DNA of 36,138 nt from a virus (lineage: Duplodnaviria > Heunggongvirae > Uroviricota > Caudoviricetes): IMG/VR virus record IMGVR_UViG_2563366848_000001; one strand, 5' to 3'. Both the position numbers and the translations under genes were made by a program. Positions 13,213 to 32,656 of this stretch are shown here, piece after piece. Numbering within the stretch: the first letter of the stretch is position 1; every line of letters begins with the position of its first letter. The notes beneath the pieces are model-generated. The model saw only the letters and a list, made by a program, of their open reading frames with translations. It was not told the DNA's origin and ran no database searches.

Positions 13213-13228
13213 GGTCGGGATTCCGACC
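13213..13228 (+). repeat. conserved hairpin motif GGTCGGGATTCCGACC, copy 1 (extended CATTTGGTCGGGATTCCGACCGC)
   Basis: Exact 16-mer; 6-bp stem GGTCGG/CCGACC with GATT loop; precedes the 13277 gene. Confidence 0.8.
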
Positions 13229-13276
13229 GCGACCCCGTTTCACACTTACGGCTCAATCATCACAGGAGCCACCACA

Positions 13277-13696
13277 ATGGGCCGACCAAAGAAACCTATC
13301 GAAGTACCGGGGCAGGAACCTGAAACGGGCGCAGAGCTGATTACAGGCGCGACCGGTGAAGCCATAACACCGGACCCACAGCGCGCAGAACAGGAAGTTA
13401 TCCAGCATCGCGTTGCTAACCTGCTGGACGATGCCGCACTCGCTGAGCGCAATACTCTGCTGGGTACCATCAACGAGCAGGGCGCGGCTATCATCGCCCG
13501 CTTTGAAACGCTGGGTTACACCGACCTGGCTGACCAGCAGCTGACCGACAATCTCGAATTCCTCCAGCTCGTAAAAAAAGCCACCACGGCGACACCTGCT
13601 GCGCCGCTGGGCTACGTGACGAACGACGAGGGCAAGCCGCAGCCCGTGACGGGTAAACCCGTTCTGACTGAGCACGGCTGGCACGTTCCAGGCTAA
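13277..13696 (+). CDS. hypothetical protein (140 aa), first gene of late operon
   Basis: ATG with AGGAG SD 7 nt upstream; start chosen over the upstream TTG start of the ORF track. Confidence 0.6.
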   Translation: MGRPKKPIEVPGQEPETGAELITGATGEAITPDPQRAEQEVIQHRVANLLDDAALAERNTLLGTINEQGAAIIARFETLGYTDLADQQLTDNLEFLQLVKKATTATPAAPLGYVTNDEGKPQPVTGKPVLTEHGWHVPG

Positions 13697-13708
13697 GAGG
13701 GTATCGAT

Positions 13709-13939
13709 ATGTGTGGAGGCGGAGCACCAAAGGTCGTACAGACCGACCCGCAGGCCGAAGCGGATGCGGCTGCCGATGCAGCGGCAAAAGCGGCAAACGC
13801 GGACGCAGCATCGCGCAAGAAGCGCAAAAAAGGCTCGTCCCTTCTCGCCAGTGGTGCAGAGGGCGCAGCTGATTCTGGCAGCTCACTGCTGTCCTCTGGT
13901 GCGCAGGCAGCGCAGCAGAAAAACACTCTGGGGGCGTAA
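13709..13939 (+). CDS. hypothetical Ala/Ser-rich small protein (76 aa)
   Basis: AGAGGG SD; low-complexity Ala-rich composition; upstream of portal gene. Confidence 0.5.
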   Translation: MCGGGAPKVVQTDPQAEADAAADAAAKAANADAASRKKRKKGSSLLASGAEGAADSGSSLLSSGAQAAQQKNTLGA

Positions 13940-13942
13940 CTG

Positions 13943-15568
13943 ATGGATGAACTCGCCGTTAAGCTGATTAAGCGTTCCGACACGCTGAAAGCCAACCGCC
14001 AGCAGCATGAAAGCGTCTGGCGCGAGTGCTATGACTACACCTATCCGCTGCGCGGCGCGGGATTCTCTGACGAAGTGCTCGATGCTCAGAGCGCAAAACA
14101 CAAGGTGGCGAAGCTACTGGACGGCACCGCCACCGACAGCGCCCGCATGCTGGCCTCTGCGCTCATGTCCGGCATGACCCCGGCAAACGCGCAGTGGCTG
14201 AACCTCGACAGCGAATCGCTACCGGACGACGCCAAAGCCTGGCTGTCTGAGTGCGCAACGCTGGTATGGGAAAATATCCACGCGGCCAACTTCGACGCCG
14301 AGGGCTACGAGGCGAATCTCGATGTGGTGTGCGCTGGCTGGTTCGTCCTGTACATCGACGAGGACCGTGAAGAGGGTGGCTACACCTTCCAGCAGTGGCC
14401 GCTGGCGCAGTGCTATGTCACGTCCACCCGCAAGGATGGCATCGTGGACACGATCTACCGCCGCTACCAGCTTACCGCAGAGCAGGCCATCAAAGAATTC
14501 GGCGCGGACAAGGTCAGCGAGAAGATCCGCGACGCGGCGAAGCAAAAGCCCGACGATAAATTCGATTTCCTGCACTGCATTTTCCCGCGCGAAACCTACA
14601 TGGTCGATGCCCGCCTGGCGAAAAACATGCGCTTTGCGTCGTACAACGTCGACGTGAACAATAAGCAGATTGTGCGCGAATCCGGCTATCACGAATTCCC
14701 GTGCTGCGTTCCGCGCTGGATGAAAATCCCCGGCAGCTCCTACGGCATCGGCCCGGTGTACGACGCGCTGCCGGACTGCAAAGAGCTGAACGAAACCAAA
14801 CGCATGGAGAAAGCCGCGCAGGATCTGGCTATCTCCGGCATGTGGATTGCCGAAGACGACGGCGTACTCAACCCGTGCACGGTCAAGGTCGGCCCGCGTC
14901 GCATCATCGTGGCGAACAGCGTCGACAGCATGAAACCACTGCTGACCGGTTCAGATTTCAGCGTGGCATTCACTGCCGAAGAGCGCCTGCAGGCGTCAAT
15001 CCGCAAAATCATGATGGCCGACCAGCTGCAGCCGCAGGACGGGCCAGCCATGACCGCAACCGAGGTACACGTGCGCGTCGCGCTGATTCGCCAGTTGCTC
15101 GGCCCGGTGTATGGCCGTTTCCAGGCGGAATATCTCCAGCTGCTGGTGGTGCGCTGCTTTGGTATCGCTTTCCGCGCAGGCATCTTCTCCCCGCCGCCGG
15201 AAAGCCTGCAGAACGCCAATTTCAACGTGCGTTACATCTCCCCTCTGGCACGCGCCCAGAAGCTGGAAGACGTAACGGCAATCGAGCGCCTCGGCGCGAA
15301 CGTGGCAAACCTCGCCGGCATCAGCCAGGACGTTATTGATCTCATTGATACCGACGAAGCCACGCGCGTTGTGGCCGATGCGCTTGGCGTCCCGGCTAAG
15401 GTTATTCGCTCATCCGATGCTGTGGCAAATATCCGCGACCAGCGCCAGAAAGCACAGCAGCAGGCCGCTCAGCAGCAGCTCATGATGCAGGCGGGAACCG
15501 AGGCCGCAGGAGCCGCAGGGCAGACCGCTGGTGCGGCAATAGGGCAACGACTGGCAGGTAACCAATGA
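13943..15568 (+). CDS. portal (head-to-tail connector) protein, T7 gp8-like
   Basis: 541 aa, size and position (before scaffold and capsid) as in T7-like phages; recognisable from overall sequence character. Confidence 0.75.
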   Translation: MDELAVKLIKRSDTLKANRQQHESVWRECYDYTYPLRGAGFSDEVLDAQSAKHKVAKLLDGTATDSARMLASALMSGMTPANAQWLNLDSESLPDDAKAWLSECATLVWENIHAANFDAEGYEANLDVVCAGWFVLYIDEDREEGGYTFQQWPLAQCYVTSTRKDGIVDTIYRRYQLTAEQAIKEFGADKVSEKIRDAAKQKPDDKFDFLHCIFPRETYMVDARLAKNMRFASYNVDVNNKQIVRESGYHEFPCCVPRWMKIPGSSYGIGPVYDALPDCKELNETKRMEKAAQDLAISGMWIAEDDGVLNPCTVKVGPRRIIVANSVDSMKPLLTGSDFSVAFTAEERLQASIRKIMMADQLQPQDGPAMTATEVHVRVALIRQLLGPVYGRFQAEYLQLLVVRCFGIAFRAGIFSPPPESLQNANFNVRYISPLARAQKLEDVTAIERLGANVANLAGISQDVIDLIDTDEATRVVADALGVPAKVIRSSDAVANIRDQRQKAQQQAAQQQLMMQAGTEAAGAAGQTAGAAIGQRLAGNQ

Positions 15569-31432: not shown

Positions 31433-31448
31433 ACTTTGATTAGTAAAG

Positions 31449-31491
31449 CCTCTGGGGTATGATTTCCTTAGTAAAAAGCATACTCCAGAGG
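31449..31491 (+). promoter_or_regulatory. hairpin overlapping the SD of the acyltransferase gene
   Basis: 13-bp imperfect inverted repeat CCTCTGGGGTATG..CATACTCCAGAGG (12/13) with 17-nt loop; 3' arm contains the GAGG SD. Confidence 0.45.
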
Positions 31492-31496
31492 ATTTG

Positions 31497-32600
31497 ATGA
31501 AAACCACAGTAAGGATTGAAGCGCTCGACGGTCTTCGCTTTATGGCATTTATGATGGTGATGTTGTACCACTACTTGTTCGCTGGGCCTATCTCAGGCTT
31601 CCTACCGAAAGAGTTAACAGTTAATGCCTTCTATTTTGGGGACTTTGGTGTTGATTTATTTTTCATTATAAGTGGATTTGTAATATCACTTTCATCAGTT
31701 GGAAGAACACCTGTTGAATTTATTAAGTCAAGGATTAATAGGATAGTACCCACCTTTATAATATTTGGATTTATAGTTTTAGTGTTTCAGTGCTTTATAC
31801 CAATGGTTGATTTTAAGGAAAGGATTGTTTCTTTATTCTATAGCTTTACGTTTTTCCCCCAAGTGTTCGGATATCATTTTTTTAGCGATATCTATTGGAC
31901 AATTCAGAAAGAGGTGACATTTTATATATTGGTTTTCATTATGATGTTATTTAACCTTTGGAGTGGTTACAGAAGGGAGATTTGCTTTGCATGGCTGGTG
32001 ATTTCATACAGCAATCAATTTTTAATCCATTCTAGCTTTGTTGATGCGCTATTTATAACTGAACATGCCGGTCATTTCATTGCAGGGATAGTAATATATG
32101 ACATAATGAAAAATAAGCCATCTCCTTTTGATTTCGTCTTGATGGTTCTTAGTGTGATCCTCATATATAATAGAATGTTGGGTTTTAATTCATATGTAAA
32201 TGGAAGTTTTGGGTATTCAGTTTCTGATGCATCTCTTCTGCTCGCATGTATCTCTCTTGTTACGTTAACCTGGTGTGCATCTAACGTATCTGAAGTCGGT
32301 AAGTTTTATAATGTTGTTAAGTTTCTTGGGGCGATGACATACCCACTGTATTTAATACATGCCGATATCGGATTTTGGTCTCACGCTATGTTTGAAAGGA
32401 AGTGGTGGGTTGAATATCCGGTTACGAAGACTTTTGTTAACTATGAGGTGACGATAGTTATTTCGATGTTAATATCGTTTACTATTGCAGCGCTGTACAT
32501 AAAGCTTCTGGATAAAAAAGTAACACGCGCCTTTAATAAAATATGGGGCCTGTTCGGCTTGCTAAGCCATAAAAAAATTAAAGGGTTAAATACACCCTAA
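31497..32600 (+). CDS. acyltransferase family 3 membrane protein (O-antigen acetylase-like), low-GC moron
   Basis: 367 aa, multiple hydrophobic helices, N-terminal LDGLRF..FF pattern typical of acyltransferase-3; markedly AT-rich versus flanking phage genes. Confidence 0.8.
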   Translation: MKTTVRIEALDGLRFMAFMMVMLYHYLFAGPISGFLPKELTVNAFYFGDFGVDLFFIISGFVISLSSVGRTPVEFIKSRINRIVPTFIIFGFIVLVFQCFIPMVDFKERIVSLFYSFTFFPQVFGYHFFSDIYWTIQKEVTFYILVFIMMLFNLWSGYRREICFAWLVISYSNQFLIHSSFVDALFITEHAGHFIAGIVIYDIMKNKPSPFDFVLMVLSVILIYNRMLGFNSYVNGSFGYSVSDASLLLACISLVTLTWCASNVSEVGKFYNVVKFLGAMTYPLYLIHADIGFWSHAMFERKWWVEYPVTKTFVNYEVTIVISMLISFTIAALYIKLLDKKVTRAFNKIWGLFGLLSHKKIKGLNTP

Positions 32601-32640
32601 ATGAATTCATTATGTTGGCTCTCGGGTCAATACCTCCAAT

Positions 32641-32656
32641 AGTCAGGATTCCGACC
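32641..32656 (+). repeat. conserved hairpin motif, copy 5 (variant AGTCAGGATTCCGACC)
   Basis: 14/16 identity to the other copies; upstream of the lysis cassette. Confidence 0.65.

Follow-up and report, generated by a model that had tools for sequence, protein, structure and literature searches.

The stretch of DNA analyzed here (hereafter, the window; 36,138 nucleotides (nt) of the IMG/VR virus record IMGVR_UViG_2563366848_000001, Caudoviricetes) contains a prophage that lies between yjbM (DUF2713) and dusA (35101-), with the integrase gene at 33923-35011. Our subject is a 16-nt palindromic repeat, GGTCGGGATTCCGACC, which occurs in front of each late gene unit of this prophage, in four exact copies and one variant copy, and most likely represents a set of DNA operators of late promoters.

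The leftward early module of the prophage encodes an SNF2 helicase, a VRR-NUC-like nuclease, an ANR-family regulator, DNA polymerase A (PolA), an Enc34-type single-stranded DNA-binding protein, and a DUF2800 nuclease. Next come a CI-type S24 repressor, a Cro-like gene and then a VapE primase and an iteron-rich origin-like region. The T7-type virion and lysis block lies on the + strand, after the gene for a 91-amino acid (aa) helix-turn-helix (HTH) protein; the T7-type portal, tail fiber, and terminase in this block, together with dusA, confirm the preliminary description of the window as a dusA-integrated, T7-like prophage. Likewise, the absence of a single-subunit RNA polymerase that was noted in that description holds for every large gene: Pfam and PHROG scans of all open reading frames (ORFs) longer than 400 aa detected no RNA polymerase, and the large ORFs could be assigned to polymerase A, primase, helicase, and T7-type virion proteins. 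Among the latter, a 967-aa virion protein contains no Pfam domain but belongs to PHROG 342, an internal virion protein.

The five repeat copies and the associated hexamers

The repeat copies and the -10-like hexamers downstream of them are listed here with the predicted transcript starts; the start codons of the late genes were picked by context.

13213-13228, + strand: copy 1 (GGTCGGGATTCCGACC), candidate operator of the head-assembly operon promoter (139-aa gene, portal, Bbp19-like, scaffold), at the predicted positions -40 to -25; gap of 48 nt to the ATG at 13277 (139-aa first late gene)
13241-13246, + strand: -10-like hexamer CACACT, 12 nt 3' of copy 1; predicted start near 13253
16674-16689, + strand: copy 2, candidate operator of the capsid promoter; gap of 149 nt to the capsid ATG at 16839
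16702-16707, + strand: -10-like hexamer AACAAT, 12 nt 3' of copy 2; predicted start near 16714
26899-26914, + strand: copy 3, candidate operator of the small/large terminase promoter; gap of 46 nt to the small-terminase ATG at 26961
26927-26932, + strand: -10-like hexamer CACCAT of copy 3; predicted start near 26939, within the left arm of the next hairpin
28831-28846, + strand: copy 4, candidate operator of the tail-fiber promoter, overlapping the large-terminase codons V-G-I-P-T, which are among the last 26 of that gene; gap of 84 nt to the tail-fiber ATG at 28931
28859-28864, + strand: -10-like hexamer GAACAT of copy 4 (terminase codons E-H); predicted start near 28871
32641-32656, + strand: copy 5, the weaker variant AGTCAGGATTCCGACC, candidate operator of the lysis-cassette promoter; gap of 55 nt to the holin ATG at 32712
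32669-32674, + strand: -10-like hexamer TACCCT of copy 5; predicted start near 32681

Our search of the window reproduced the positions and the number of copies given in the preliminary description, with exact 16-mers at 13213, 16674, 26899, and 28831 and a 14/16 variant at 32641, ahead of the head-assembly, capsid, terminase, tail fiber, and lysis genes. By shuffling, the expected number of chance matches to the 16-mer with at most two mismatches is 0.01, and 0 of 100 shuffles reached nine; the matches on the - strand are only the same near-palindromes read in reverse. With a position weight matrix derived from related phages, just five sites in the window score above 8 bits (29.7-55.2), the maximum across 20 shuffles being 6.8. 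All five copies are co-oriented with the late genes, and the early region contains none. The half-sites, GGTCGG and CCGACC, have their centers 10 base pairs (bp) apart and enclose an A/T-rich middle, GAWW. Copies 1 and 2 additionally share a 23-nt context, CATTTGGTCGGGATTCCGACCGC (CATTT...GC flanks; 13208 and 16669), as had been pointed out previously.

For comparison, we retrieved 80 IMG/VR loci through homologs of the 91-aa protein, plus 2 genome loci (a scan of genome contigs with the HTH alignment gave just 2 loci), and a scan with the motif pattern fetched 120 further stretches. The motif is conserved at equivalent positions, as the preliminary description had proposed to check, in more than 100 related phage contigs. 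In essentially every locus that is long enough, it lies between the HTH and capsid genes; in the contigs that cover the rest of the genome, further copies precede the small terminase and holin genes and occur within the 3' end of the terminase gene. Each of the five classes of sites has its own characteristic distance and hexamer throughout the family, and this conservation of position reaches phages of 45-70% G+C content (GC) with capsid proteins that are just 37-55% identical. The prophage itself is rare, being present in 2 of 5426 complete Escherichia coli genomes, with an identical copy in E. coli B379 (NZ_CP090456); the first late (139-aa) protein has homologs in more than 600 clusters, mostly, from Enterobacter, Salmonella, and Citrobacter. 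We scanned the phages BPP-1, BcepC6B, Xfas53, Piluca, TPWB-05, vB_EcoM_APEC, and Hafnia phage yong1 and found the motif absent, and a search with the motif strings returned nothing relevant in the searchable part of the literature.

Yersinia phage YeP4, which is syntenic with the window prophage at about 72% DNA identity, carries a variant of the motif at each of the five corresponding positions, (A/G)GTC(G/A)GGAAACCGAA(C/T), or GGTCAGGATTCCGACC ahead of the lysis genes. Inside the terminase gene, the codons over the motif encode VGIPT in the window and VGKPN in YeP4, changing as the motif variant requires. Because the amino acids follow the motif variant, selection at this site acts on the DNA sequence, not on the protein, which bears out the earlier claim of nucleotide-level selection. 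Across the family, the half-sites are nearly fixed, and the center of the palindrome varies (GATT, GATC, GAAT, GAAA). A weaker form, AGTCAGG, recurs specifically at the terminase and lysis promoters, in what looks like tuning of operator strength. The distant members of the HTH family (E-values of 1e-11 to 1e-17; phages of 45-69% GC) also are followed by a cognate palindrome and hexamer, the palindrome being AGTCGGGAATCCGACA, AGTCAGGAATCCGACT, or the symmetrically altered GGCCGGGAAACCGGCC.

Twelve nucleotides past the copy, all five sites of the window and all five of YeP4 (CACACT, TAGCCT, GACCAT, GACCAT, and TAAAAT in the latter) contain a hexamer with A in position 2 and T in position 6. Among the family sites with a late gene within 200 nt, such an nAnnnT hexamer is present at 12 nt in 129 of the 131 and at 11 nt in the other 2, compared with 10 of 48 unrelated chance hits of the motif. 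Outside the motif, the informative positions of a matrix built from 168 unique sites are three in the hexamer (A in 141, A in 106, and T in 140 of the 168) and those of an A/T-rich flank immediately 5' of the motif; the 12-nt spacer holds less than 0.25 bit per position. If the hexamer is set as -12 to -7, the palindrome occupies positions -40 to -25, centered at -32.5, and the bases at -35 to -30 are GGAWWC, unlike TTGACA; a consensus scan found neither a canonical sigma-70 promoter nor a -35 consensus ahead of the late units. Judging from these sequence patterns, the repeats are most likely DNA operators of sigma-70-type promoters that lack a -35 element. Among the options considered in the preliminary description, that of late promoter or activator sites and that of binding sites of an unknown phage protein are well supported by the fixed spacing of the hexamer, the presence of the motif in more than 100 contigs, and its co-occurrence with the HTH gene discussed below.

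DNA operators, RNA hairpins, and neighboring RNA structures

The repeat was originally presented as a hairpin motif. Indeed, a perfect copy folds into a stable 7-bp stem with a 4-nt loop (-11.1 kcal/mol, z -3.0), and the copies could be envisaged to work at the RNA level, as hairpins of the late transcripts, in nut/boxB-like antitermination, processing, or stability; the terminators near copies 2 and 3 would fit such a role, and so would compensated variants, namely, A5/T12 in 3 unique sites and the locus L213, in which both half-sites are altered symmetrically (GGCCGG/CCGGCC). The change in L213 is as expected of a dimer site, but symmetric changes of the half-sites fit an RNA stem equally well. 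However, at stem pair 5:12, the unique sites include 21 disruptive A.C and 4 G.T combinations, next to the 3 compensated A-T pairs, and the weak folds of the lysis copy (-2.1 kcal/mol, z -0.5) and of the YeP4 form (-5.3 kcal/mol) point in the same direction. Because the variant copies break the stem mostly without compensation, an RNA hairpin is disfavored, and the hairpin framing of the repeat is not supported. Furthermore, an invariant -10-like hexamer at a fixed spacing has no role in an RNA hairpin, hairpins of such length are too short for RNase III, and no Rfam family was detected at any copy. Given the predicted starts, the motif would lie upstream of each transcript, which speaks against the antitermination and RNA-processing options of the preliminary description. 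Altogether, we find it very improbable that the copies function as RNA.

The copies are not intrinsic terminators either. No T-run directly follows any of the five, in line with the earlier observation that they lack a U-run, and copy 3 has a separate hairpin with six T residues 18 nt further on. The terminators of this region are other hairpins, listed here along with the leader of the capsid mRNA.

16641-16673, + strand: terminator-like hairpin and T-run at the end of the head-assembly unit; the T-run enters the ATTT flank of copy 2
16714-16838, + strand: three-hairpin 5' leader of the capsid mRNA (about 125 nt), which begins at the predicted transcript start
17766-17791, + strand: strong intrinsic terminator just 3' of the capsid gene
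26933-26961, + strand: 9-bp hairpin and T6, directly 3' of the -10-like hexamer of copy 3 and ending at the small-terminase ATG

Because no copy of the operator follows the capsid terminator, expression of the tail and internal-virion genes would need read-through of it. The right arm of the hairpin at 26933-26961 holds the only Shine-Dalgarno-like sequence (AGGG), and this arrangement is conserved in the relatives, with compensating changes in YeP4.

The capsid leader is a genuine RNA structure that, in contrast to the repeat copies, covaries clearly: 94% of the cells are paired, and double-sided changes occur in 12 of 23 pairs, the shuffled and slid controls giving 5.6 and 2-6, respectively. 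It is kept even in relatives of 62-70% GC and has no match among Rfam families; possibly, it functions in translation control or mRNA stability. The third hairpin of the leader is formed by a motif-like sequence, GGCCGGGAAACCGACA, at 16790, which is conserved in the relatives and has a GNRA-type loop. We considered this sequence as a sixth operator and rejected it because it is part of the covarying leader RNA and the 'hexamer' downstream of it is not conserved.

Short GC-rich stem-loops ahead of genes that have no -35 element also bring to mind the extruded hairpin or cruciform promoters of the N4 virion RNA polymerase, in which case the 967-aa virion protein, with no Pfam domain, might be thought of as an unrecognized polymerase. 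This protein, however, belongs to PHROG 342, all other large ORFs are assigned otherwise, and the nAnnAT hexamer indicates an enzyme of the sigma-70 family; the stem-breaking variants count against hairpin promoters as well, and we regard this explanation as extremely improbable.

The 91-aa HTH protein as the candidate reader of the repeats

12724-12999, + strand: gene that closes the rightward early region and encodes the 91-aa XRE-type HTH protein, the proposed late activator

The 91-aa protein has a lambda-repressor-type fold of the XRE/Cro-C1 superfamily (AlphaFold2 (AF2) model, pLDDT 88), with extra terminal strands. The nearest solved folds of the AF2 model are the controller (C) proteins of restriction-modification (R-M) systems, P22 c2, and the 434 repressor, all of which are dimers on palindromes. 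A sequence search of solved structures yielded nothing significant, and no Pfam or NCBIfam family was found for this protein.

The region upstream of the first copy is covered in 18 loci, and a profile search detected a homolog of this protein in each of them. The HTH gene ends 3-490 nt before that copy, the distant members included, and is the last rightward early gene wherever this can be read. Many motif-bearing relatives lack the PolA/SNF2/VapE/ANR early module, and in a tblastn presence matrix, the only non-virion gene that they share is the one for the HTH protein. The recognition helix motif, (S/A/P)-K/R-(S/A/T)xxxGW, is kept wherever the repeat is present and lost where it is absent. 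Among the relatives of the virion module, BPP-1, vB_EcoM_APEC, and Xfas53 have neither a close HTH homolog nor the motif, and in Xfas53 and APSE, a Q gene occupies the equivalent slot; Piluca, TPWB-05, and BcepC6B (gp01) have distant homologs with a different recognition helix, in which Lys/Arg36 is lost, and lack the motif. The family is sizeable, with 836 cluster representatives at E<=0.001 and 162 at <=1e-10 in the profile search. In the sampled members with enough flanking DNA, the cognate palindrome lies directly after the gene (4 of 4), and three of these four, on longer contigs, precede a T7-type portal-capsid block.

Of the three candidate binders named in the preliminary description, the product of the gene at 12724 co-occurs with the motif, and the other two do not. 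The 86-aa ANR-family protein (3245-3505), as well as a 307-aa protein and the PolA module that we also considered, are missing from many motif-bearing relatives, whereas no sampled relative contained the 83-aa PrtN-family protein (1248-1499), the slot of which lies outside most of the fetched loci.

We consider it likely that the five copies are the switch sites of activator-dependent, sigma-70-type late promoters that are read by the 91-aa HTH protein via the host polymerase. Besides the equal fit of symmetric half-site changes to an RNA stem, several observations weigh against this assignment. The 16-mer hardly varies across hosts of 45-70% GC, whereas the identity of the HTH protein drops to about 35-46%, so that no clean covariation between protein and site could be discerned; a candidate covariation between residue 38 (A to T) and a change of CCGACC to CCGAAC is contradicted by locus L191, and only the coarse pattern, with Lys/Arg36 present along with the motif and absent without it, remains. 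The sole promoter-like match in front of the HTH gene (12653-12680) is no better than regional chance. A second universal companion of the motif is the 139-aa first late protein, the N-terminus of which (MGRPKKP) is basic. Conceivably, the late promoter elements are read by this protein in a positive feedback, or by a conserved host factor, with the HTH protein having another job. However, the 139-aa protein is encoded downstream of the first copy and so cannot begin the cascade, and it has no detectable DNA-binding domain; we know of no enterobacterial regulator with a site that fits the palindrome; and the recognition helix motif of the HTH protein tracks the presence and absence of the repeat. 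A different reader appears rather unlikely.

The family is labeled 'transcriptional repressor' in PHROGs, most XRE proteins and most operators that overlap the -35 region act in repression, and the palindrome does overlap the -35 position. The HTH protein could, then, keep the late promoters off, or time them, with activation coming from elsewhere. To our knowledge, the PHROGs label rests on no test. Promoters without a -35 element and with -10 sequences as weak as CACACT, CACCAT, and TACCCT should be nearly inactive unaided, which leaves little to repress; the HTH gene occupies the slot of Q in APSE and Xfas53, that is, the slot of a positive late regulator; and the prophage has a separate CI-type S24 repressor. 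Repression by the HTH protein thus seems distinctly unlikely.

Under the activator scheme, CI would keep the rightward operon silent in the lysogen, the HTH gene included, because it stands last in the rightward early region, and after induction, the HTH protein would be the last product of this operon. An HTH dimer would approach the helix from one face to bind both half-sites, the centers of which lie near -37.5 and -27.5, and would leave the major groove near -33 free on the other face, where the host RNA polymerase would be recruited or stabilized. The palindrome would substitute for the -35 element, in combination with the weak -10 hexamer 12 nt downstream, and the HTH product would turn on five units: head assembly, capsid, terminase, tail fiber, and lysis. 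Terminators would part the units, with the tail and internal-virion genes expressed through read-through of the capsid terminator, and the AGTCAGG variant at the lysis promoter may set a lower or later expression. The hairpin at 26933-26961 would stop transcripts arriving from upstream, whereas those begun near 26939 would lack its left arm, escape termination, and expose the AGGG Shine-Dalgarno-like sequence. A more specific version, which we deem unlikely, is that the HTH protein stands in for region 4 of sigma, reading the palindrome while the polymerase reads only the -10 element. In that case, the near-frozen state of the 16-mer across hosts of 45-70% GC would stem from its recognition by the phage protein together with a universally conserved surface of the polymerase. 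If true, this would be a one-protein analog of sigma appropriation by T4 MotA/AsiA.

Some of the genomes discussed above and the regions around the main elements show further features of their own. In the Burkholderia phage BcepC6B, gp01 (176-478), which is annotated as 'transcriptional repressor', is a distant homolog of the HTH protein (E-value of 2e-10) and takes up the equivalent slot, after the primase and before the packaging genes, in a phage that has no GGTCGG palindrome. The Alcaligenes phage Piluca carries a different repeat, CACCCAACAAAC, at 1-70, 4830-4920, 19430-19530, and 24190-24265, and the Acinetobacter phage TPWB-05 has equivalent sites; before each late unit, this repeat is followed by a hairpin, a T-run, and an ATG. 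The distant HTH homolog in these two phages is 137 aa long, and this may be a parallel late-control system.

In the window, just 3' of the HTH gene, a long-loop inverted repeat (AAAACAGGGCG...CGCCCTGTTTT; 13011-13060) may insulate the late operon from early read-through; the stretch at 13033-13079 is 89% identical to an intergenic region of the unrelated Hafnia phage yong1. The origin-like region (12418-12592), right after the VapE primase, contains six direct and inverted copies of CCTAGACCACC around an AT-rich tract (catatatatatataag), and about 90 complete E. coli genomes contain unannotated DNA with 80-84% identity to its segment at 12462-12585. An RprA-like small RNA, on the - strand (8629-8741) between the CI repressor gene and the early operon, overlaps a 68-aa ORF and matches Rfam RF00034 over its full length, with 55 bits against a gathering score of 70; its 3' half (AAUUGCUGUGUGUAGUCUUUGCCCGUC...GACGGGC and a U-run) is almost identical to the RprA consensus. 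The 86-aa early protein (- strand) belongs to the ANR (AraC negative regulator) family (NCBIfam NF033650, 72 bits; weak match to PerC in Pfam) and is possibly a prophage-encoded modulator of host virulence regulators, with no link to the motif. The 83-aa protein (- strand; PF11112, pyocin activator family) is in the position of an excisionase, beside attL, and falls in PHROG 1300, 'excisionase'. Between the tail fiber and lysis genes, an AT-rich (about 40% GC) O-acyltransferase gene (Acyl_transf_3; 31436-32600) has its own sigma-70-like promoter, TTGATT-16-TATGAT (31436-31463), and is probably a moron for lysogenic conversion that the prophage expresses.

Comparison with known late-control systems

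The geometry proposed here most resembles that of the promoters activated by CII of lambda and C1 of P22 (PRE, PI, PaQ). CII binds the face of the helix opposite to RNA polymerase. In PRE, as measured on the lambda sequence, TTGC-N6-TTGC ends 13 nt before AAGTAT, which we take to be the -10 element, and so occupies -39 to -26, centered at -32.5. In both cases, a small HTH activator (97 aa there, 91 aa here) would serve several promoters per phage, and the half-sites, 10 bp apart, sit astride a non-consensus -35 region, centered at -32.5, next to a weak -10. CII, however, is a tetramer on direct repeats that controls lysogeny-establishment promoters, whereas here the repeat is inverted and precedes late genes, and the 91-aa protein has no match to the Phage_CII domain of Pfam. 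Direct TTGC-N6-TTGC repeats are also given as the CII sites in PMC10345575, with reference to Ho et al. 1992.

To the C proteins (C.EcoT38IS, C.Kpn2I, C.AhdI, C.Esp1396I, and C.BclI), the likeness is one of generic fold only, with 11-20% identity and a different C-box. C proteins autoregulate a single operon through paired operators in an R-M context, unlike the predicted phage late regulon of five promoters; no R-M genes adjoin the HTH gene, and the sequence of the operator and the layout of the copies differ from those of the C-box.

At the middle promoters of T4, MotA/AsiA use an element centered near -30 that replaces the -35 hexamer, about 12 bp from the -10. The likeness lies in a -35-replacing element at a similar spacing; unlike the repeat described here, the MotA box is non-palindromic, MotA is unrelated to the HTH protein, and AsiA remodels sigma-70, with no AsiA-like gene seen in the window. 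The layout of the late region is that of the T7 class III genes (phi10 - gene 10 - T-phi), with a promoter before the capsid gene, a terminator with partial read-through after it, and further promoters later on, but T7 has its own single-subunit polymerase and 23-bp promoters, whereas the host polymerase and a small activator would do the work here. We rejected antitermination of the Q type (lambda, APSE, Xfas53) because there is no homolog of Q, and the five weak promoters would each restart transcription after a terminator.

Control of many late operons by one early phage protein, through a conserved element combined with a sigma-70 -10 and no -35, is known for Lpa of P1 (PMC3152322, PMC8198154); there, however, the element is centered at -22 and requires the host SspA (PMC3152322), and Lpa is an unrelated protein. 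Also similar, according to PMC3152322, are C/Mor of Mu and Ogr of P2, phage activators on dyad-symmetric sites at several late promoters without a good -35; the sites of Mu C (-30 to -55) and P2 Ogr (about -55) are placed differently, and these proteins are of another HTH type or zinc-binding. Phi29 p4, TP901-1 Alt, and RinA are further late activators at conserved late-promoter sites; RinA is the topic of PMC3152322, in which these systems are reviewed in the discussion.

The scheme proposed here would be one explanation of how the structural and lysis genes are timed in temperate phages that have a T7-type particle but lack a polymerase of their own, and the candidate regulator is one of a sizeable, unannotated family. 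The motif and the -10 rule could be used to annotate late promoters and the regulator in many prophages of Enterobacterales, and the pair of HTH protein and operator could provide synthetic biology with a compact, apparently orthogonal activator/promoter set with graded operator strengths. Late activators that act at multiple late promoters are a known kind of control; what differs here is the protein family, the operator, a CII-like geometry employed for late genes, and the T7 layout without a polymerase.

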